NCBI GenBank assembly: GCA_910584295.1
Contig: CAJTYR010000001.1
Span: 69,374-133,373 of the forward strand
Length of the DNA: 64,000 bases
Origin: an uncultured Christensenella sp.
Lineage (GTDB): Bacteria; Bacillota; Clostridia; Christensenellales; UBA1242
Direction of reading: 5' to 3'
Shown here: piece by piece, positions 34,261 to 47,344 of the stretch
Position numbering within the stretch: the first letter of the stretch is position 1
Layout: every line of letters begins with the position of its first letter
Notes under the pieces: model-generated
Seen by the model: the letters and a program-made list of their open reading frames with translations, nothing else
Databases searched by the model: none
What the model was told of the DNA's origin: nothing
Program-made: the position numbers and the translations under genes

Positions 34261-34782
34261 TTATTTTGTTTTTCTTTGTACGCTTTCAACAACATTGTTT
34301 TTGTAGATAACTATTTCATCAAAACCTTCTTCCAGTTTTGGAAAGTTTTCTCTTATTTCTCTCTCATTGAAAGAAGCGACCTTTTCTGGGTTTTCTATTT
34401 TGTGAATAAATGGATCTCTTTTTTCTCTATCCTTAACCCTTTGAACACAAATCTCCTTATCAGTCAGAAGCACTCTTCCAGTCACATAACAATCATATTT
34501 TTCAGTAATCTTAAAATATTGATCTCTTTTGATTGTGTTGACACCATCAAGAATAACATTTTTGCCAACTTTCAAAAAATCTTCAAATCGTTTTCGAAGC
34601 TCCCCATAAACAATTTGGTTTGTTTTGAAATTGTATTCATTTGGCAAATATCCAGAATCCACAAGTTCCTTTCTGATTTTATCACTGGAAAGAATGACCG
34701 CATCATTCTTTTCCGCAAGTTTTTTTGCCAATGTGGATTTTCCAGATCCAATCATGCCAATCATAATATCAACAGAAACCAT
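34261..34782 (-). CDS. P-loop kinase-like ATPase (AAA_33 / polynucleotide-kinase-like)
   Basis: Walker A GMIGSGKSTLAKKL, Asp after the beta-strand (ILSSDKIR), lid-like RVKDREKR; 173 aa. Confidence 0.6.
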   Translation of the reverse strand: MVSVDIMIGMIGSGKSTLAKKLAEKNDAVILSSDKIRKELVDSGYLPNEYNFKTNQIVYGELRKRFEDFLKVGKNVILDGVNTIKRDQYFKITEKYDCYVTGRVLLTDKEICVQRVKDREKRDPFIHKIENPEKVASFNEREIRENFPKLEEGFDEIVIYKNNVVESVQRKTK

Positions 34783-34843: not shown

Positions 34844-37417
34844 TTAATCTCTTTTAACTTCTTGTTTGATATAACATTCCAAAATGTCGCCTTCTTGGAA
34901 ATCAACATTGTCACGAAGTTTAATACCACATTCATAACCCTTTGCAACTTCACTCTTTTCATCTTTGACAATCTTAAGAGATTCAATGATTGAGTCACCA
35001 ACAATTTCTTCTCCACGCTTGATTTTTGCAATTCCGTTTCTTTGAATTTTTCCGTCAAGCACATAACTTCCAGCAACTTTCCCTGCAGTTGAAAGTTTGA
35101 ATACAACTCTTATCTCTGCTTTTCCAACATATTTTTCTTCATATTTAATTGCCATCATACCTTTTGAAATTCTTGTAATTTGGTCAACAACTTCATAGAT
35201 AATTCTTGATTCAATCAATTCAACCTTAAGGCTATCAACCATTTGAAGCATTTTGTTTGGTGTTTTGATATTGAATGCAACCACAACAGAGCCTGTCGTT
35301 TGAGCAAGCACTAAATCGCTTTCAGTAATTCCACCAGCAGCACTATGAATACAAACAACTTTCACTTCATCATTTCTGATTGCTTCAAGTGATGCTTTAA
35401 GTGCTTCAACAGAGCCTTGAGTGTCGGCTTTGATGATGATGTTAAGATTTTTCAAACTGCCCTCATGCACCCTGTTCATAAAGTCATCTGCACTCACTCC
35501 GGAAGTTTGTTTTGCACGCTCTTGCTTAATCTTATTAATTCTTTCATTGATAACTTGTTTTGACAAACTTTCATCAACAGCGTATACCGCATCACCAGAA
35601 TTTGGAACATCATTAAAGCCCATAACAGCAACTGGGGTTGATGGTCCAGCTTTTTTGACAGCTTTTCCATTTTCATCAAACATCGCTTTGACTTTTCCAT
35701 AAGTTATACCAGACATGATTGAGTCACCGATTTTCAAAGTTCCACTTTGAACAAGCACAGTTGCAACAGCACCCCTCGTTTTGTCAAGTTCGGCTTCAAC
35801 AACAACACCTGTTGCCATTTTGTTTGGATTTGCTTTAAGCTCTTGCATTTCAGCCACAAGCAAAATCATTTTCTTAAGTTCATCAAGTCCCATACCTGTC
35901 TTTGCAGAGATAGGAACACAAATTGCGTCTCCACCCCATTCTTCAGGCAAAATACCATGTTCCGTCAATTGTTGTTTGATGCGGTCAGGATTTGCTTCAG
36001 GTTTATCCATTTTGTTTATTGCAACAATCATAGGCACGTTTGCCGCTTTGATATGATTGATTGCTTCAATTGTTTGAGGCATAATTCCATCATCAGCAGC
36101 AACCACAAGAATTGCAATGTCTGTCACCTCGGCACCTCTTGCACGCATTGCAGTGAATGCTGCATGCCCAGGAGTGTCGATGAAAGTGATTTTTTCGCCA
36201 TTAAAGGAAATCTGATAAGCACCAATTTTTTGAGTGATTCCACCAGCTTCCCCAAGCACAACATTTGTCTTTCTGAAAGCGTCCAAAAGGGATGTCTTAC
36301 CATGGTCAACGTGTCCCATAACAGTGACAACTGGAGGACGTTTAACCAAATCTTTTTCATCATCTTCTTCAACTGATTTGTCAAGAAGTTTTTCTTCATA
36401 GGTTTTATCCATCTTAAGCTCAACAGTGACCCCAAGTTCACCGGTGATAAGTTCACATGTATCAAAATCAATTGTGCTGTTGATTGTTGCCATAACTCCC
36501 AAAAGCATAAGTTTCTTAACAATTTCAGCAACAGGCTTTCCAATTTTTTCACTCAATTCTTTAACTGTGATTTCCCTTGAAGTAAGAACAGCATGAGTCA
36601 CTTGTGGAGCAATCACAACTTCAACTTCTTTTTTCTTCTTAATTAGTTTTCTTGAACCCATCGTAGTTTCTTCAAAACCATCCTCATTCATAACAAGAAT
36701 GTTGTTGTTTTGTTTTCCAAATCCAGCCCTTGCTTTTGCAGAAACTTTCTTTGATTCATCGACATTTCTTCTTTGCTTATTTTTATTTCCAAAGTTTCTT
36801 TCTGGCTGAGCAAGAACAGAACTGCTTTCTGTCGCCCCAGAAGAGAAAGATTTAAATCCGTTTGCTTTTGTTGAAACAAAGGAATTACTTTTTGGTCTTG
36901 CAGAAGGATTTTGTCCATTTCTGTTAAATTGCCCAGCTGGTCTGTTTGCGTTGTTGAATGGACCATTTGGTCTTTGCCCAAATCTTCCGCCATTTTGCTG
37001 TCCATTGTTTTGGAAGCCACCTTGTCTGAAATTTCCTCCTTGCCCCTGACCATTTCCATTTCTTTGCTGAAAACGAGGGTTATTCGTCTGACCATCAAAC
37101 TTACGGAAGTTGTTGTTTTGATTTCCTCCTTGCCCAAAGACTTGCTTTTTTTGTTCAACTTTCTGTTCTGCTTTCTCCACAACAGTTTCGTCATGTTTCG
37201 CTTTTTCAAGTTCAACAGCCTTTGCCTTTTCAAGTTCAACTTTCTTCTTTTCTTCATCTCTTGCTTTTGCTTGCAATTTTGATTTTTGATCTTGCACACC
37301 TTTTGCAAAAGAATCAATTGCAACCTTTGATTGCTTTATTGACAGCAATAAATCCTGCAAAGAGCCATCTCTTTGTAAATTGTTGATTGTTTTAAGTGCG
37401 TTAAGTTGTGTTGCCAA
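34844..37417 (-). CDS. infB: translation initiation factor IF-2
   Basis: G domain [21 protein letters not shown]. The N-terminal third is low-complexity and Q/N/G/R-rich. Confidence 0.97.
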
Positions 37418-39825: not shown

Positions 39826-41361
39826 TTACTTTTCACACAATTTCAAAAGAAGTTGTGCAGTTGCATATGCATCATTCCATGCTCTATGTGCTCCAACAAG
39901 ACTTATTCCATAATATTCACAAAGTGTACCAAGCTTGAAATTATGAGATCTAACACCCTTTTTTATTGCAAGTTTATATGTGTCAATAAGTTCATTGTCA
40001 AACTCAACATCAAGAGTATCTTCATATCTTTTTACAAATGGGAAGTCAAAGTCAATCATGTTGTGTCCACAAAGAGCACAATCTTTTGAGAAATTAAAGA
40101 AATCCACAATCACTGGCTCGATTGATGGAGCATTTTCCACCATACCATTTGTGATGTTTGTAAGTTCTGTGATTTGTTGTGAAATGCGAATCGTTGGCTT
40201 AACCAATGATGCAAATTTTTCTTTTATTACACCATCAACAATCTTAACTGCTCCAATATCAATAATTTGGTCATTATATTTATCAAAGCCTGTTGTTTCA
40301 AGGTCAAAGACCACAATGCTTTTCCCTTTTATCAAATCATTGTATTCAATCTTTTGACCGAACATGCTGTCTTGTTCAAGAGACTCAAGTTTCTCCACCT
40401 TCACAACAGAACCACTGTAAGTTTTCTTTGGTTTCTGAATGAATTCAATCTCTTCCAACTTGTTTGCCAAAGCCATCTTATCAACTCTCAAAACGAGTTT
40501 TCCAGAAAATTTACTTTTTTCAACATCTCCATGAACAAGCATATACATACAATCTTCAAGTGCTTCCATTTGCCCCAAATTACTTTTTGAACAAAAATGA
40601 ATACAATCAATTTTTCCTCTTTCATCTTCCAAGACAAATGTGTAATAAACCCCTTCTGTGCCAGCTTTAGCGCCTGATTTCCTGACAAAGTCATGTCTTG
40701 AAAGTTTGTTTAAAAATCCAGCAACAACAACATTCATTTTTGGAGACTTGATATTGTTTATGTATTCAGGCTTGGTTGGAATATTTTTTCCTATGCAATC
40801 TTTGATAATCTCAACTGAATATCTTTTAGACACTTTATATTTTGCGGTTATTTCAACATTTTCAATATCAACTTCATCCACAAAATCTTCGCTCACACAA
40901 CAAGAAACCACAAACTCACACAAGAAATTGTTTTTAAGATGCTTTGCAAGCTCCGTTGCAACTCCATGTTCCTCAAAAAAATTGAAAATTCGATCACTGA
41001 CAGTTATGTTGATTTGAACATCAATTTCAGTCATCTCGATTTTAAAGTTTTCATCATGCAAATAGGAATACATCAATTTGTATCTTTCTTCAAAAAAGCT
41101 TTTAATAGCTTTAAGAATCAATCTTTCTTCAACAAAAGCACGCATAAATTTCGTGCGGATTTTAAGTTGTTCCAAGCCTAAATGTCTTTCCAAAAAATCA
41201 CTAATTTCCTTCTTATCGTTTTCAGTAAGTTCTTCCACAGTTGAAGGATACAAAAAAGTTGCAGTGCAGACGCCTTCACGCTTTTTCACCACAACACTTT
41301 GCAATTGAAGGTCTTTATATTTATCACCAAACTCGGTGAAAAATTCTTCTTCAAAATTCAT
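39826..41361 (-). CDS. PolC-derived protein: PolC-like N-terminal region, OB fold and DEDDh 3'-5' exonuclease, without PHP or polymerase domains
   Basis: Exo I VVFDLETTG, Exo II GHNMIDFDFPF, Exo III HRAWNDAYATAQLL. The upstream segment VVVAGFLNKLSRHDF...YYTFVLEDERGKIDCIHF...VHGDVEKSKFSGKLVLRV parallels the PolC OB domain. The protein stops right after Exo III. Confidence 0.6.
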   Translation of the reverse strand: MNFEEEFFTEFGDKYKDLQLQSVVVKKREGVCTATFLYPSTVEELTENDKKEISDFLERHLGLEQLKIRTKFMRAFVEERLILKAIKSFFEERYKLMYSYLHDENFKIEMTEIDVQINITVSDRIFNFFEEHGVATELAKHLKNNFLCEFVVSCCVSEDFVDEVDIENVEITAKYKVSKRYSVEIIKDCIGKNIPTKPEYINNIKSPKMNVVVAGFLNKLSRHDFVRKSGAKAGTEGVYYTFVLEDERGKIDCIHFCSKSNLGQMEALEDCMYMLVHGDVEKSKFSGKLVLRVDKMALANKLEEIEFIQKPKKTYSGSVVKVEKLESLEQDSMFGQKIEYNDLIKGKSIVVFDLETTGFDKYNDQIIDIGAVKIVDGVIKEKFASLVKPTIRISQQITELTNITNGMVENAPSIEPVIVDFFNFSKDCALCGHNMIDFDFPFVKRYEDTLDVEFDNELIDTYKLAIKKGVRSHNFKLGTLCEYYGISLVGAHRAWNDAYATAQLLLKLCEK

Positions 41362-41435
41362 AAGACCATTCTATAAAATTTTAGGATTTTTGTCAAGTTA
41401 AAGATTTACATAACATAAAACAATGTCAATTTTGC

Positions 41436-42767
41436 TTACATAACAAAATGCAAGATGTCAATAAGCACAACAAAGCCCAGCAAAACACATAGCCCCACAA
41501 AGTGAATCATGTTTTCAACCTTTCGATTGATAGGCTTCCCACGAATCCACTCAATGATCGTAAACAAGATATGCGCCCCATCCAAAGAAGGAATTGGAAG
41601 AAGATTGAAAATCGCAAGGTTTGCAGCAATAAGAGGAATGAAAATCAAAAGATAAGACAGTGATTGAGATGCCATTGTTGCAATTGTTGTGATTGTTCCA
41701 ACTGTGCCAGTCATCTGTGTGATAGGAATTTGAAATGTGATGAGCATCCAAAGACTCTTAAGCACAACCCAAGCAAAACCAAACGCCATTTCAAAAGAGC
41801 GACAGAAACCTTCCCAAGCATTGTAAACATATGCACTTGTGCAAGATTTTTCTCCCTTTGCACTTTCAAGTCCAACATAAGTGTTAAGAATATAAACTGG
41901 ATTTCCTTCATCATCCACAACTGGTTTATCTTTATTATCTAGTTTCTGTTCAAAAACTGGGCATACAGCAATTTTGAGAACTTCTTTTTTGCCATGAAGA
42001 GAACCATGTCTGACAGTCATGTTAAAGGTATAAATTTGAGATGTCTCTCCTTTTTCAAACTTATCAAGTTCTGTTTTCATAAACTCTGCAAGAATTTGAT
42101 TTTTCTGCTCAATTGAAAGTCCTGTTATGCTTGGGTCAATCGCTTGAAGCTCTGAAAGTTTAACATCAAAGTATGTCTTTAATATTTTGGTATATTTTTC
42201 TTTTGCTTTAACTCTTTGACTATTGACCATTGACACATAGTTTCCACCAAAAGCAAAATCAATTTTTTTGCCATTTATGTGAGTGATTACATCGCCTTTT
42301 TTATATGGATTTGTGTGAGTAAAATAAACTGTCTCACTTTCATCAACCACTTGGACATAGGAATAGCTTGTGTTGTTGAAAGTTTGAATTTGAGGAACAT
42401 CATAACCAATGCTTGACAAAAGCACCCAAGAGAAAATGATCGCAGTGATGAAATTCATCGTCACCCCACCAAGGAGAACAAGGATTCTTTTCCAAGGTTT
42501 CTGATTGTTGAATGCTGTTGGCGATGTGTTTCCTTCATCATCCTCTTCCCCATCAAAAGCACAATATCCACCCAACGGAAAAATACGGAGCGAAAACTTT
42601 TCCCCCGTTTTTTTGTTTGTTTTTGAGAAAATTGGGAAACCAAAACCAATTGAAAACTCTGTTATCTTAAATTTTAGTATTTTCCCAACAATATAATGCC
42701 CCAGTTCATGAACTAAAATCATAAACAAGAGAATGACAATCGCAAGCAAAATATAAACAGCAATCAT
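41436..42767 (-). CDS. rseP: RIP metalloprotease RseP (site-2 protease, M50)
   Basis: HELGHYIVGK in TM1, PDZ-like KKGDVITHINGKKI, and a C-terminal NLLPIPSLDGAH motif. Confidence 0.88.
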   Translation of the reverse strand: MIAVYILLAIVILLFMILVHELGHYIVGKILKFKITEFSIGFGFPIFSKTNKKTGEKFSLRIFPLGGYCAFDGEEDDEGNTSPTAFNNQKPWKRILVLLGGVTMNFITAIIFSWVLLSSIGYDVPQIQTFNNTSYSYVQVVDESETVYFTHTNPYKKGDVITHINGKKIDFAFGGNYVSMVNSQRVKAKEKYTKILKTYFDVKLSELQAIDPSITGLSIEQKNQILAEFMKTELDKFEKGETSQIYTFNMTVRHGSLHGKKEVLKIAVCPVFEQKLDNKDKPVVDDEGNPVYILNTYVGLESAKGEKSCTSAYVYNAWEGFCRSFEMAFGFAWVVLKSLWMLITFQIPITQMTGTVGTITTIATMASQSLSYLLIFIPLIAANLAIFNLLPIPSLDGAHILFTIIEWIRGKPINRKVENMIHFVGLCVLLGFVVLIDILHFVM

Positions 42768-45203: not shown

Positions 45204-47315
45204 TCATTTCTTTCCGTCATCTTTGACCTTTGTGATTTTAATAACATCCGATTCCAATCTGTGGTACGCATCATTTGAAAGTTCTTGAGTTAGTTTTTTG
45301 AGAGGAGAATACAATTTTTCAGGTGTAGGAACAATGACTTTTTCTGAGCCAAACAAAGTTTGCTGTGGATCGACATAAGTCTGGCCAATATCTTTCAGAG
45401 TCTCAATAAGTGGTTCTCGAAGTGTGCTTTCAATGATGTCTGTGATTGGCTCTTTATCATCAAAACACATGTTCGTCAAGAAATCAATCACCCTGTCGTT
45501 AAGCTTATCAATGTCTGTAAACCTCTTATTCAATTTTTCACGCTTAACATCATTATTTTTGATTTTAACCAACATTTCTTTGATCTCTTCAGAGAATGAA
45601 ATCTCTTTATCACGAAGTCGACCAAAATCAATGTAATCATCACCAGTTCTTTCAATTTGCTCAACAATAAATCTTTGATTATTGATACTCTTAATTTCAG
45701 TTGTGACCGCAAGCATCTTTTTTCTGTCTGTCAAAATCTCATTCCAACCACCATATTGATTGAGAATTGTTCTAATTTGACTTCTGATTTCTCTTCCTCC
45801 AAGTTCATCCTTTTTAAGTTTTAATTCATGAAGTTTTCTGATATGTGGCACGATTCTTGGATCATTATCAAAGAAAAGCTCCACAAATTTTTCAACTCTT
45901 TGCCAATCGTCCATTTTGTCAACATCAAGAATTACAATATCTTCAATCTTTGCAAGTTTTCTAAACACAGGAATAACATCAAAATCAATGTTATGCTTGT
46001 TTGCAAAAAGCGATTTCCCAAGTTTGAAAAATCTTCCCATATAAGGATTGTCTGGATTCTCTTTGTCATGAGCATCGATTGCATGTAAAAGTTGGTTCAA
46101 CTTCTCATTGTCCATTGCAAGCACATATGTATTTTTCTTAATATACTCAATCGTTCCATTGACACCTGCATATCCCTCAAGCAAATAAATGTTTTTGTAA
46201 GCATTTGAAACCATTTCTTTAAGAGGAATTGAATTCATCAAGCAAATATTTGAAGGATTTTCAAACAAGAATGAAAGATTGTATGTATGCTGTTTTTCAA
46301 CAGCACAAAACTCATTGTTTAACTGAGCTTGCAAGTTCTTGATAAATATTTCTTTTTCCTTCATTGACCGAGCGTTAATTGTCAAAACAGAAAAATTGTT
46401 ATTAATCCAACTTCTAAGAAGGTGGCGCTTACACTCAAACATTGTCATGCTTACTCGCCCTTCTTTTTGTGCCCTGTTATATTCTTCCACAACAAGTGCC
46501 CTTGGAAGTTTGCTCATAACATATTTATAGGCGTCTTTCAGCTTTTCAGCATTGCAAGCAAAAAGACTTGGACAACAAACAAGCCCATCTCTTATGGCTC
46601 TCACTTTTTGTCTATTTCTTTCAAGTCCAATATATGGTTTATCAGGGACATTATACAAATATCTCCAAATACCTTCCTCTTCATTATAAATAGCAAAAGA
46701 AAGAAGAGCTTGATATATGTTTGAAACCCCACTTGCAGTCAACTTTGAAAGCATTGTTGCGGCACATTTTTCAAACATTCCATTAACAATTTCTGATGAA
46801 TTTTCTTTTGAAAGCGCAAGGGTCAGAATTATTTGATCATAAATCCTGTCAAAATTTCTGTCGTAATTGCTATAACTTGATACAACACGTGTATCTGGAT
46901 CATATGTAACACCCAAATTTCCATCAGTAAGTGAAGTTTTGTAAATTGTTTTGTATATATCAATTCCCCTATATGAAATTGAATGATACAATGATTTCAA
47001 TCTGTTATAAATTGCAGATGCATCATCATCAGTATATTTTGGAGCAGACAAAATTGCTTCAGCAGATTTTTTCCTGTCATTAATCTCTTCTTTTGTCAAA
47101 CTTGGATCAAGTGCACCTTTGCCTTGTCTGCAAAATGGTGCAAGTGCAGCAACGGTCGCAACAAGAGTTTGTCTGGAAGATTCAGTCATATATTTGGTTG
47201 AAAAAGTATAATTTTCTTTCAGTTTTCTTGCAATAAACTCTTCAGAGACACCGAAGTATGTTTTAAGAATTCTGAATACACCATCACGGTTTGCTTCCCA
47301 CTCAAAACCTGCCAT
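45204..47315 (-). CDS. hypothetical 703-aa soluble protein, no recognised domain
   Basis: Uninterrupted ORF with RBS AAGGGGGA before ATG 47315, plus its own promoter and terminator. No P-loop, no amino-acid-kinase motifs, no TM segments. Confidence 0.8.
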   Translation of the reverse strand: MAGFEWEANRDGVFRILKTYFGVSEEFIARKLKENYTFSTKYMTESSRQTLVATVAALAPFCRQGKGALDPSLTKEEINDRKKSAEAILSAPKYTDDDASAIYNRLKSLYHSISYRGIDIYKTIYKTSLTDGNLGVTYDPDTRVVSSYSNYDRNFDRIYDQIILTLALSKENSSEIVNGMFEKCAATMLSKLTASGVSNIYQALLSFAIYNEEEGIWRYLYNVPDKPYIGLERNRQKVRAIRDGLVCCPSLFACNAEKLKDAYKYVMSKLPRALVVEEYNRAQKEGRVSMTMFECKRHLLRSWINNNFSVLTINARSMKEKEIFIKNLQAQLNNEFCAVEKQHTYNLSFLFENPSNICLMNSIPLKEMVSNAYKNIYLLEGYAGVNGTIEYIKKNTYVLAMDNEKLNQLLHAIDAHDKENPDNPYMGRFFKLGKSLFANKHNIDFDVIPVFRKLAKIEDIVILDVDKMDDWQRVEKFVELFFDNDPRIVPHIRKLHELKLKKDELGGREIRSQIRTILNQYGGWNEILTDRKKMLAVTTEIKSINNQRFIVEQIERTGDDYIDFGRLRDKEISFSEEIKEMLVKIKNNDVKREKLNKRFTDIDKLNDRVIDFLTNMCFDDKEPITDIIESTLREPLIETLKDIGQTYVDPQQTLFGSEKVIVPTPEKLYSPLKKLTQELSNDAYHRLESDVIKITKVKDDGKK

Positions 47316-47344
47316 AAACAAAATCCCCCTTAATCCTTAATTTA

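Follow-up and report, generated by a model that had tools for sequence, protein, structure and literature searches.

A polC ortholog without its polymerase in gut Clostridia: apparent separation of proofreading as a subunit of its own

In Firmicutes the gene for the main replicase, polC, usually occupies the slot directly upstream of rimP-nusA, and PolC is regarded as essential to low-GC Gram-positive bacteria and as their hallmark replicase. What, then, is the 511-residue protein encoded in this slot in an uncultured Christensenella sp., and how does it relate to PolC? Within the window (that is, the whole 64,000-nucleotide stretch of DNA that was analysed) the gene runs from 39826 to 41361 on the minus strand, with an ATG start and a stop codon at 39826-39828, and is embedded in the order rpsB-tsf-(a 705-residue protein of unknown function)-frr-uppS-cdsA-rseP-[511-residue gene]-rimP-nusA-ylxR-L7Ae-infB. 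The open reading frame is thus as the first-pass annotation had it, directly upstream of rimP-nusA-ylxR-infB, and the gene order likewise confirms that proS and dxr are missing from the cdsA-rseP string. Also missing from it are ispG and pyrH; the canonical loci L086 and L089 have dxr, ispG, proS and pyrH. In the same genome proS is present, outside the window and about 20 kb from its start, and a further 10 kb on either side of the window adds spoIIIA, nusB, xseAB, proS, spoVA and ileS.

This arrangement is not peculiar to one genome. The truncated gene lies directly upstream of rimP-nusA-ylxR-infB, at a gap of 100-480 nt, in 44 of 46 truncated-type loci, and full-length polC takes the equivalent position in seven compared loci (L042, L050, L051, L055 and L075-L077); the 511-residue gene is therefore a positional ortholog of polC. 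A promoter-like element (TTGACA-17-TAGAAT, matching the consensus at 11 of 12 positions; 41368..41396, minus strand) ends 6 nt before the ATG, upstream of which no Shine-Dalgarno sequence is found, and the same putative layout is repeated in 10 related loci. No phage or plasmid record covers at least 80% of the protein.

The homology to PolC extends beyond gene position, although sequence-only tests of the N-terminal region proved insufficient, so that profile-profile comparison was needed. The Pfam models of the PolC N-terminal domain (NTD), PF14480 and PF11490, match no family member, which fits what is known of this domain, namely that it is poorly conserved (PMC3919608); and the family profile, when compared with the PDB, returns exonuclease matches only, the OB fold being colinear yet not significant. 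Profile comparison by hhalign, by contrast with these tests, finds a PolC-specific NTD followed by an OB fold: residues 1-304 align with 14 PolCs at a probability of 97.3% (E 2e-11) over 275 colinear columns. The resemblance of the N-terminus to the PolC N-domain, as proposed at first reading, holds up in that the first 160 residues can be aligned to the PolC NTD over its full length, with a probability of 84% (P 8e-6, 146 columns) when the NTD is taken alone and of 97% when it is taken with the OB fold. The NTD consists of two subdomains, both delimited in an AlphaFold2 (AF2) model: subdomain I (residues 1-76; 41134..41361, minus strand; pLDDT 80-90), which is colinear with the PolC NTD and has a predicted layout of helix, two strands, helix, strand; and subdomain II (residues 79-156; 40894..41127, minus strand), for which Foldseek returns weak matches to alpha/beta modules arranged in tandem, among them the two KH domains of NusA. 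A disordered linker (residues 157-180; 40822..40893, minus strand; pLDDT below 50 at residues 164-177) leads to the OB fold (residues 183-301; 40459..40815, minus strand). The latter is recognised by the Pfam tRNA_anti-codon OB model in 16 of 20 members (best E 1e-8) and, as had been suggested for the middle of the protein, matches the PolC OB fold on its own (hhalign probability 96.5%); the top Foldseek match of the predicted structure is Enterococcus faecium PolC (9qpc), over 389 columns spanning the OB and exonuclease domains. The NTD-OB profile match to PolC speaks against an ordinary DnaQ-family exonuclease fusion.

The C-terminal domain (residues 346-511; 39829..40326, minus strand) is a DEDDh 3'-5' exonuclease, as the motifs quoted in the first-pass annotation had indicated. 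On the minus strand the Exo I motif DLETTG lies at 40288-40305, Exo II (NMIDFD) at 40045-40062 and Exo III (HRAWND) at 39871-39888, all with verified coordinates; the catalytic residues D353 and E355 (Exo I), D439 (Exo II), and H492 and D497 (Exo III) are invariant in 35 of 35 members. Pfam RNase_T (PF00929) matches residues 350-505 (E 2e-32; 113 bits against a cutoff of 24) and the dnaq family model TIGR00573 scores 87.2 bits, above its cutoff of 71.5. With its three motifs, its D, E, D, H and D residues and its above-cutoff score the domain belongs to the DnaQ/epsilon family of DEDDh exonucleases; it is not Pol III epsilon proper, since it reaches 65 bits with TIGR01406 (dnaQ_proteo), a model whose cutoff is 222.7, and the protein has no sequence beyond the exonuclease domain. 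As judged from sequence comparison, it is closest to the exonuclease domains of PolC: a PolC model scores 144 bits, the PolC exonuclease structure 2p1j matches with E 1e-27, and identity is about 42% to clostridial PolC exonucleases versus about 28% to Escherichia coli DnaQ. In a neighbour-joining tree of exonuclease domains rooted on E. coli DnaQ, the family is monophyletic in only 13 of 30 bootstraps.

Everything else that characterises PolC is gone. The claim that no PHP segment separates the OB fold from the exonuclease is borne out: PF02811 has no match in the protein, and the intervening segment (residues 300-340) aligns to the N-terminal part of the PolC PHP domain with an hhalign probability of 0.1%. 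Likewise absent, as first noted, are palm, fingers and thumb, inasmuch as no Pfam or NCBIfam model of the C-family polymerase core (PF07733 DNA_pol3_alpha, fingers, (HhH)2) matches the protein, which stops 14 residues past the Exo III aspartate, D497. Whole-protein scores are correspondingly low (NF001688, 144.3 bits against a cutoff of 873; TIGR01405, 126.4 against 1043), and in its lack of a polymerase core, of a split PHP domain and of a C-terminal QLSLF, as well as in score, the protein falls outside PolC-type DNA polymerase III. Nor is the polymerase encoded nearby: tblastn with the C-terminal region of PolC yields no match in the window, nor in any of the 46 truncated loci with 10 kb on either side; these truncated-type loci contain no open reading frame of at least 850 residues with a DnaE motif; and no polymerase gene occurs in the roughly 84 kb around the gene (that is, the window and its extension).

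The largely disordered linker between the OB and exonuclease domains (residues 302-345; 40327..40458, minus strand; pLDDT below 50 at residues 304-314 and 328-333) contains a candidate beta-sliding-clamp-binding motif, QDSMF (Q330-F334; 40360..40374, minus strand; translation verified). Both Q330 and F334 are invariant in the two family alignments (of 35 and 20 sequences). A broader pattern, Q-x-x-[LMIFV]-[FLWYM], is present in 210 of 223 members (about 94%), its distance to Exo I being exactly 23 residues in 159 of these, and Q-x-x-[L/M]-F itself recurs at a fixed linker position in about 200 of the 223; elsewhere in the family Qxx[LM]F occurs 4 times in 110,967 positions (about 0.00004 per position), and it is absent from the equivalent place in 24 full-length PolCs. 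The consensus for clamp binding is Qx2[L/M]x0-1F, with QTSMAF of epsilon as a precedent (PMC3642679), and the clamp motif of PolC itself is a C-terminal QLSLF (PMC12309361). The full-length PolCs of the compared loci end in NQLSLF or variants, whereas the 511-residue family ends in ...LLKLCEK. Given its match to the consensus, this five-residue linker motif is a candidate clamp-binding peptide.

Is this truncated form maintained, or is it a relic? Conservation in relatives, which the first-pass annotation had singled out for checking, is pronounced. The N-terminal profile matches 494 clusters at 50% identity, the best 150 matches all being at most 573 residues long and none being fused to a polymerase, and about 46 species-level metagenome-assembled genomes of uncultured Clostridia have the form in this slot, the GC content of the host loci ranging from 28% to 63%. 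The clade labels are Christensenella-like, Ca. Caccovivens, Ca. Coproplasma and Ca. Scatosoma, all gut Clostridia and mostly uncultured. The 35 aligned members are 36-97% identical, about 510 residues long and share one end point. Longer members (564-642 residues) owe their length to low-complexity insertions, which fall in the NTD-OB linker (P0086, P0087 and P0102), and none of them is an intermediate form with PHP or polymerase remnants. Database labels are inconsistent ('PolC-type DNA polymerase III' or 'ribonuclease H-like domain-containing protein'). An assembly break is ruled out as the cause of the truncation, because the cluster of P0001 (97% identical) is found on 147 contigs of up to 269 kb and the end point is identical in all members. 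Of the two alternatives entertained at first reading, that of a free-standing proofreading or recruitment subunit derived from PolC is favoured, and is further strengthened by the clamp-binding-like motif, while that of a remnant passively left over is rejected in view of the strong conservation.

Because only the NTD, the OB fold and the exonuclease have been kept and a likely clamp-binding peptide has been gained, proofreading seems in this clade to have passed to a subunit of its own. The reading that we consider on balance probable is that the protein is a clamp-tethered, free-standing proofreading subunit derived from PolC and functionally like E. coli epsilon. On this proposal the polC ortholog would have dropped the whole PHP-polymerase module while keeping the NTD, the OB fold and the DnaQ-type exonuclease; strong purifying selection acts on the protein, which is predicted to be active as a 3'-5' exonuclease. 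The Q-x-x-[L/M]-F peptide of the linker, in place of the C-terminal QLSLF lost along with the polymerase, would dock in one of the two pockets of the beta sliding clamp, so that the protein might ride the clamp beside a separately encoded C-family polymerase--presumably DnaE1 or, alternatively, a PolC-type polymerase without exonuclease encoded elsewhere. Misincorporated 3' nucleotides would then be removed in trans, as by epsilon in the E. coli alpha-beta-epsilon complex, while the OB fold may hold single-stranded DNA and the NTD may provide the replisome contact (to the clamp loader) proposed for the PolC NTD, whose function in replisome attachment is itself a proposal (PMC3919608). DnaE1 was present in every bacterial species examined in published surveys, and clostridial DnaE1 is reported to keep a conserved putative epsilon-binding surface (PMC3919608). 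On the other hand, in Clostridia the PHP proofreaders of DnaE1 and PolC are usually active (PMC12926913), so that an additional proofreader is not obviously needed. The stronger version, in which the clade has given up the PolC polymerase and relies for replication on DnaE1 alone, with the tethered NTD-OB-exonuclease protein as its trans proofreader, would mean that Firmicutes have independently re-invented the alpha-epsilon-beta arrangement; it is put forward only tentatively.

A rather unlikely alternative is that PolC has been split: polC was duplicated, the NTD-OB-exonuclease copy stayed in place, the NTD-OB-PHP-polymerase copy moved, and the two genes jointly rebuild PolC, in which case replication would still depend on a PolC-type polymerase and not on DnaE1 alone. 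Exonuclease-less PolCs of 1195-1275 residues, that is, the complementary architecture expected on this account, are abundant in Clostridia and common also in Negativicutes (PMC3919608), and one such group (that of P0364, its members 66-88% identical to each other) lies outside the polC slot, adjoining hisS-aspS. Against this, the other exonuclease-less PolCs examined occupy the polC slot themselves, which implies that their genomes lack the truncated form there, and no exonuclease-less PolC was linked to a genome with the truncated gene, the matches listed having 0 contigs in common. A search with the C-terminal region of a Christensenellales PolC returned generic clostridial PolCs along with many exonuclease-less ones; the PolC best matched by the NTD-OB hidden Markov model of the family (P0370) has its closest relatives in Negativicutes, which a search with it returned rather than members of the clade; and the absence of any long protein among the 150 best NTD-OB profile matches argues against a recent duplication. 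Among the loci listed, moreover, no WGS prefix is common to the 47 truncated-type and 33 PolC-type loci, which speaks weakly against a second, exonuclease-bearing PolC in the same genomes.

Still less probable is that the protein is a clamp-associated, PolC-derived exonuclease for repair or processing (in mismatch-repair excision, or at Okazaki fragments or stalled forks) with no part in replicative proofreading. Many clamp-binding proteins are indeed repair factors with the same consensus (PMC3642679, PMC12309361); an OB fold joined to a nuclease is a common repair architecture, and the family profile weakly matches the OB fold of YhaM/Cbf1; and stand-alone DnaQ homologs average more than three per proteome, most of them not being replisome subunits (PMC12926913). 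What disfavours this account is the retention and strong conservation of the PolC-specific NTD, for which replisome attachment is the only role proposed (PMC3919608), and the strict confinement of the gene to the polC slot across genomes that differ so widely in base composition. That the gene is a non-functional remnant or an artefact, such as a frameshifted or misassembled polC, might be suspected from its position and from the NCBI label of one member as 'PolC-type DNA polymerase III', but is highly improbable: hundreds of independent assemblies, with contigs as long as 397 kb, show the gene ending at this very point; tblastn finds no polymerase-coding sequence 3' of the stop codon in any truncated locus; and catalytic as well as N-terminal residues are invariant, with a pN/pS of 0.055 (between this gene and that of L001).

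A large clade of gut Clostridia thus keeps, at the canonical locus and under strong selection, only the non-polymerase half of PolC, a form of which no description was found in the literature searched. If these bacteria have no PolC polymerase, they would be Firmicutes with a DnaE1-only replisome and a new kind of proofreading subunit; and, PolC being an antibiotic target (of ibezapolstat; PMC12592400), intrinsic insensitivity to PolC inhibitors would be expected, the target being naturally missing. If an exonuclease-less PolC is encoded elsewhere, they would instead be a natural case in which PolC has been divided into two subunits, one for polymerisation and one for proofreading. In either case the protein offers a handle on the roles of the PolC NTD and OB fold apart from the polymerase, and on the division of labour within the uncharacterised clostridial system of PolC and DnaE1 (PMC3919608).

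How, finally, does the protein compare with known systems? With PolC itself (for example that of Bacillus subtilis, Geobacillus kaustophilus (3F2B) and E. faecium (9QPC)) it shares the chromosomal slot and an NTD, an OB fold and a DEDDh exonuclease in the same order; it differs in lacking both halves of PHP, palm, fingers, thumb and (HhH)2, in that its exonuclease follows the OB fold via a 45-residue disordered linker rather than being inserted in PHP, and in that the C-terminal QLSLF is gone while Qxx[L/M]F is found in the linker. Stand-alone DnaQ-like proteins of Firmicutes (PRK06807, DinG) and the N-terminal exonuclease of Bacteroidetes DnaE1 belong to the same DEDDh subfamily, but none of these has a PolC NTD and OB fold in front; PRK06807 (134 bits) and the N-terminal exonuclease of DinG (119 bits) do match, with scores far below the family cutoffs, as does the structure of Staphylococcus aureus DinG (8zef). 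Epsilon may be regarded as the closest functional analogue, being a free-standing DEDDh proofreader with a clamp motif beside its catalytic domain; in epsilon, however, QTSMAF comes after the domain and is followed by a C-terminal alpha-binding tail, of which the 511-residue protein has no counterpart, and epsilon has neither an OB fold nor a PolC-type NTD, the exonucleases being only about 28% identical. The exonuclease-less PolCs described by Timinskas et al. (2014) illustrate that polymerase and exonuclease are separable in this part of the tree: often located in the same slot, they too have kept the NTD and OB fold, and, at about 1195-1275 residues, they represent the reciprocal deletion, in which PHP and polymerase are kept and the exonuclease is lost.

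The 511-aa gene (window 39826-41361, minus strand; ORF call) lies directly upstream of rimP-nusA, in the polC slot, as the first-pass annotation accurately described. Upstream of it come rpsB, tsf, an unknown gene of 705 aa, frr, uppS, cdsA and rseP; downstream come rimP, nusA, ylxR, L7Ae and infB. It also holds that the C-terminus is a complete DEDDh exonuclease (Pfam RNase_T, a full-length match at residues 350-505, E 2e-32), the quoted motifs having been verified in presence and coordinates. Pfam gives a weak OB-fold match (residues 234-296) and no match to a PHP or polymerase family, in agreement with the reported absence of palm, fingers and thumb. The top NCBIfam model is the PolC equivalog NF001688, at 144 bits against a cutoff of 873 and confined to the exonuclease segment (model positions 418-586 of 1445); the generic epsilon-family model TIGR00573 is passed, at 87 bits against 71.5. 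Compared by sequence with solved structures, the protein is nearest to 2p1j, the exonuclease domain of T. maritima PolC (E 1e-27), and to 9qpc, E. faecium PolC; mean identity of the exonuclease domain is 42% to clostridial PolC exonucleases versus 28% to E. coli DnaQ.

Because sequence-to-profile methods were inconclusive for the N-terminus, a profile-profile comparison was made against 14 full-length PolCs from a genome scan. This aligned the N-terminus of the family with that of PolC over 275 colinear columns (query 13-304, PolC 18-314; probability 97.3%, E 2e-11), bearing out the proposed resemblance to PolC N-terminal domains and to the PolC OB domain; taken alone, the N-terminal domain matched with a probability of 84% (P 8e-6, 146 columns) and the OB fold with one of 96.5%. 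The linker (300-340) showed no similarity to PHP-N, consistent with the claim that no PHP segment separates OB fold and exonuclease. In an AF2 model (pLDDT 84.8) the chain divides into five: a pair of alpha/beta subdomains (residues 1-76 and 79-156), the OB barrel (183-301) and the exonuclease, with a disordered linker before the barrel and a largely disordered one after it. Foldseek ranked E. faecium PolC first in the PDB, with a 389-column alignment across OB fold and exonuclease; the PolC N-terminal domain is unresolved in that structure (PMC12592400). A model of the N-terminal region only (pLDDT 89.5) weakly resembles tandem alpha/beta modules, the NusA KH pair among them, which is compatible with, without proving, the published prediction of two KH-like subdomains in the PolC N-terminal domain (PMC3919608).

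The truncated form turned up at 47 or more loci in the genome scan, and at 46 of these the gene is complete (about 450-550 aa); at least 33 further loci carry PolC, mostly full-length (about 1320-1640 aa). The truncated-form loci come from species-level MAGs labelled uncultured Clostridia, Christensenella/Christensenellaceae, Ca. Scatosoma and Ca. Coproplasma, and the label Ca. Caccovivens is attached to one family member; NCBI places these genera in Clostridia incertae sedis. In 44/46 loci a distance of 100-480 nt separates the gene from rimP-nusA-ylxR-infB downstream, the position held by full-length polC in Peptoniphilus, Clostridium, Tissierellia, Halanaerobiales and a Christensenellales MAG; over a wide clade, therefore, this gene and polC are positional orthologs. 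Host loci range in GC from 28% to 63%, so the arrangement is old. The 10 kb on either side of each truncated locus contain no PolC polymerase module. The most divergent low-GC relative examined (L002 1-651; P0117, 38% identical) has other sequence in place of the upstream cdsA-rseP string, and a phage terminase gene ~9 kb upstream; the downstream rimP-nusA linkage is intact.

The first-pass annotation had allowed for a remnant of polC or a fragment due to an assembly break, and had called for conservation in relatives to be checked. A search of 5.8 billion proteins found more than 120 homologous clusters, 36-97% identical, nearly all of 503-545 aa and covered over their full length, many of them from 100-400 kb contigs. 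All of 35 aligned members end at most 17 residues past Exo III, and in them the catalytic D353, E355, D439, H492 and D497 are invariant, as are many N-terminal positions; longer members carry low-complexity insertions in the disordered NTD-OB linker rather than polymerase remnants. When a profile built from residues 1-340 only was scored against 1.84 billion cluster representatives, 494 matched at E <1e-3 (84 at <1e-30); the best 150 are all ≤573 aa, so that among these the N-terminal region is never fused to a polymerase. Between the window gene and its 97%-identical relative in locus L001, pN/pS is 0.055. Family conservation, invariant catalytic residues and this ratio exclude a remnant, and the common end point and long contigs an assembly artefact; judged by its sequences, the family is functional and conserved.

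Both family alignments, of 35 and 20 sequences, show two invariant positions in the OB-Exo linker, Q330 and F334, while the residues around them vary; AF2 confidence is <50 at residues 328-333. The pattern Q-x-x-[LMIFV]-[FLWYM] occurs upstream of Exo I in 210/223 full-length members--exactly 23 residues before it in 159/223--frequently as QDSMF, QDNMF, QDTMF, QSNLF, QTNLF or QANLF. The stricter Qxx[LM]F is rare elsewhere in the family, with only 4 occurrences among the other 110,967 positions, and 24 full-length PolCs lack it at the corresponding place. This pattern equals the beta-clamp-binding consensus Qx2[L/M]x0-1F, and in E. coli epsilon QTSMAF, a motif beside the exonuclease domain, attaches to the clamp and enhances proofreading (PMC3642679); the linker Q-x-x-[L/M]-F is therefore likely a clamp-binding motif. 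B. subtilis PolC binds the clamp via its last five residues, QLSLF, a contact that is essential (PMC12309361), and the full-length PolCs of the examined loci likewise end in a QLSLF-type C-terminus. Since the motif is C-terminal in PolC but lies in the linker here, the family has lost the ancestral one with the polymerase and carries a new candidate.

The gene thus encodes a PolC-derived NTD-OB-Exo protein, strongly conserved, with catalytic residues intact, in the polC slot. In the mechanism proposed, QDSMF would dock it in one of the two pockets of the beta dimer, the other would be taken by a C-family polymerase with a gene of its own, and 3' mismatches would be edited in trans; the OB fold would bind single-stranded DNA and the N-terminal domain would provide a replisome contact, attachment to the clamp loader being the only role proposed for that domain of PolC (PMC3919608). 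DnaE1 is the obvious candidate partner, because polymerases of the DnaE type are reported from all bacterial species surveyed (PMC12926913), a putative epsilon-binding surface is described as conserved in clostridial DnaE1, alongside a typical clamp motif (PMC3919608), and some Clostridia have a DnaE1-only replication set (PMC3919608, PMC4070872). It is also possible that PolC is split, the truncated gene coexisting with an exonuclease-less PolC in the same genome. Exonuclease-less PolCs (1195-1275 aa) are frequent in Clostridia and Negativicutes, and this model stays alive because one group (P0364) sits outside the polC slot, beside hisS-aspS; however, no link was found between that group and the truncated clade. 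A DNA repair role, unrelated to proofreading, is possible too. The earlier suggestion of a free-standing, PolC-derived proofreading or recruitment subunit is supported by a functional, conserved family with a candidate clamp motif.

The P0364 proteins (1267-1275 aa) are encoded away from rimP-nusA, between hisS-aspS-lepB and a nucleosidase gene (L085 10001-13828). Three examples of exonuclease-less PolC occupy the polC slot itself; such slot-resident forms measure ~1221 aa in Negativicutes and, for some Clostridia, 1222-1240 aa (L086, L087 and L089 among the loci examined).

No Shine-Dalgarno sequence precedes the 511-aa gene (window 41362-41460, minus strand), and in 11 loci (the window, L001-L003, L005-L008, L010, L016 and L023) a promoter-like consensus match, TTGACA-17-TAnAAT, ends 6-7 nt before the ATG. 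This layout points to a leaderless mRNA, or to re-initiation after rseP. The last rseP codons contain the -35 in several loci, where the rseP stop codon falls inside the -10; the 74-nt spacer in the window seems to hold a single repeat of the rseP 3' end. The 705-aa ORF (45204-47321, minus strand) lies between tsf and frr, the usual place of pyrH, which is missing from the rpsB-tsf-frr string; it has no Pfam or NCBIfam match, and relatives conserve it, at 703 aa in L001 and at 914 aa in both L003 and L004. Between infB and rbfA a 173-aa AAA_33/zeta-toxin-like P-loop kinase gene is inserted (34261-34782, minus strand; present in L001, absent in L003), and IF2 (infB, 34844-37417, minus strand) has a long Q/N/G-rich low-complexity segment at roughly residues 90-200 of its N-terminal region. 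proS lies ~20 kb past the window start, after nusB-xseA-xseB; neither dxr nor ispG was seen in the ~84 kb of window and flanks, though uppS is present. The organism looks like a spore former, since the spoIIIA operon, spoVA and yunB flank the window (L092 13647-18487 and 20695-21011; L095 2927-5557; both loci are from the same species as the window).

This analysis sharpens the earlier reading in three ways: (i) a functional, conserved family, (ii) a candidate clamp-binding motif, and (iii) positional orthology to polC in a wide clade. Targeted literature text searches found no description of a polymerase-less PolC form; both comprehensive surveys of C-family polymerases dropped polymerase-less or truncated sequences before parts of their analysis. 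Unlike PolC, the 511-aa protein is without polymerase core, PHP domain and C-terminal clamp motif, and scores below the curated PolC cutoff; the DEDDh and epsilon-family domain tests are the only membership tests that it passes; and it is the reciprocal form of exonuclease-less PolC. The best reading is one of descent from PolC and of working most like epsilon.
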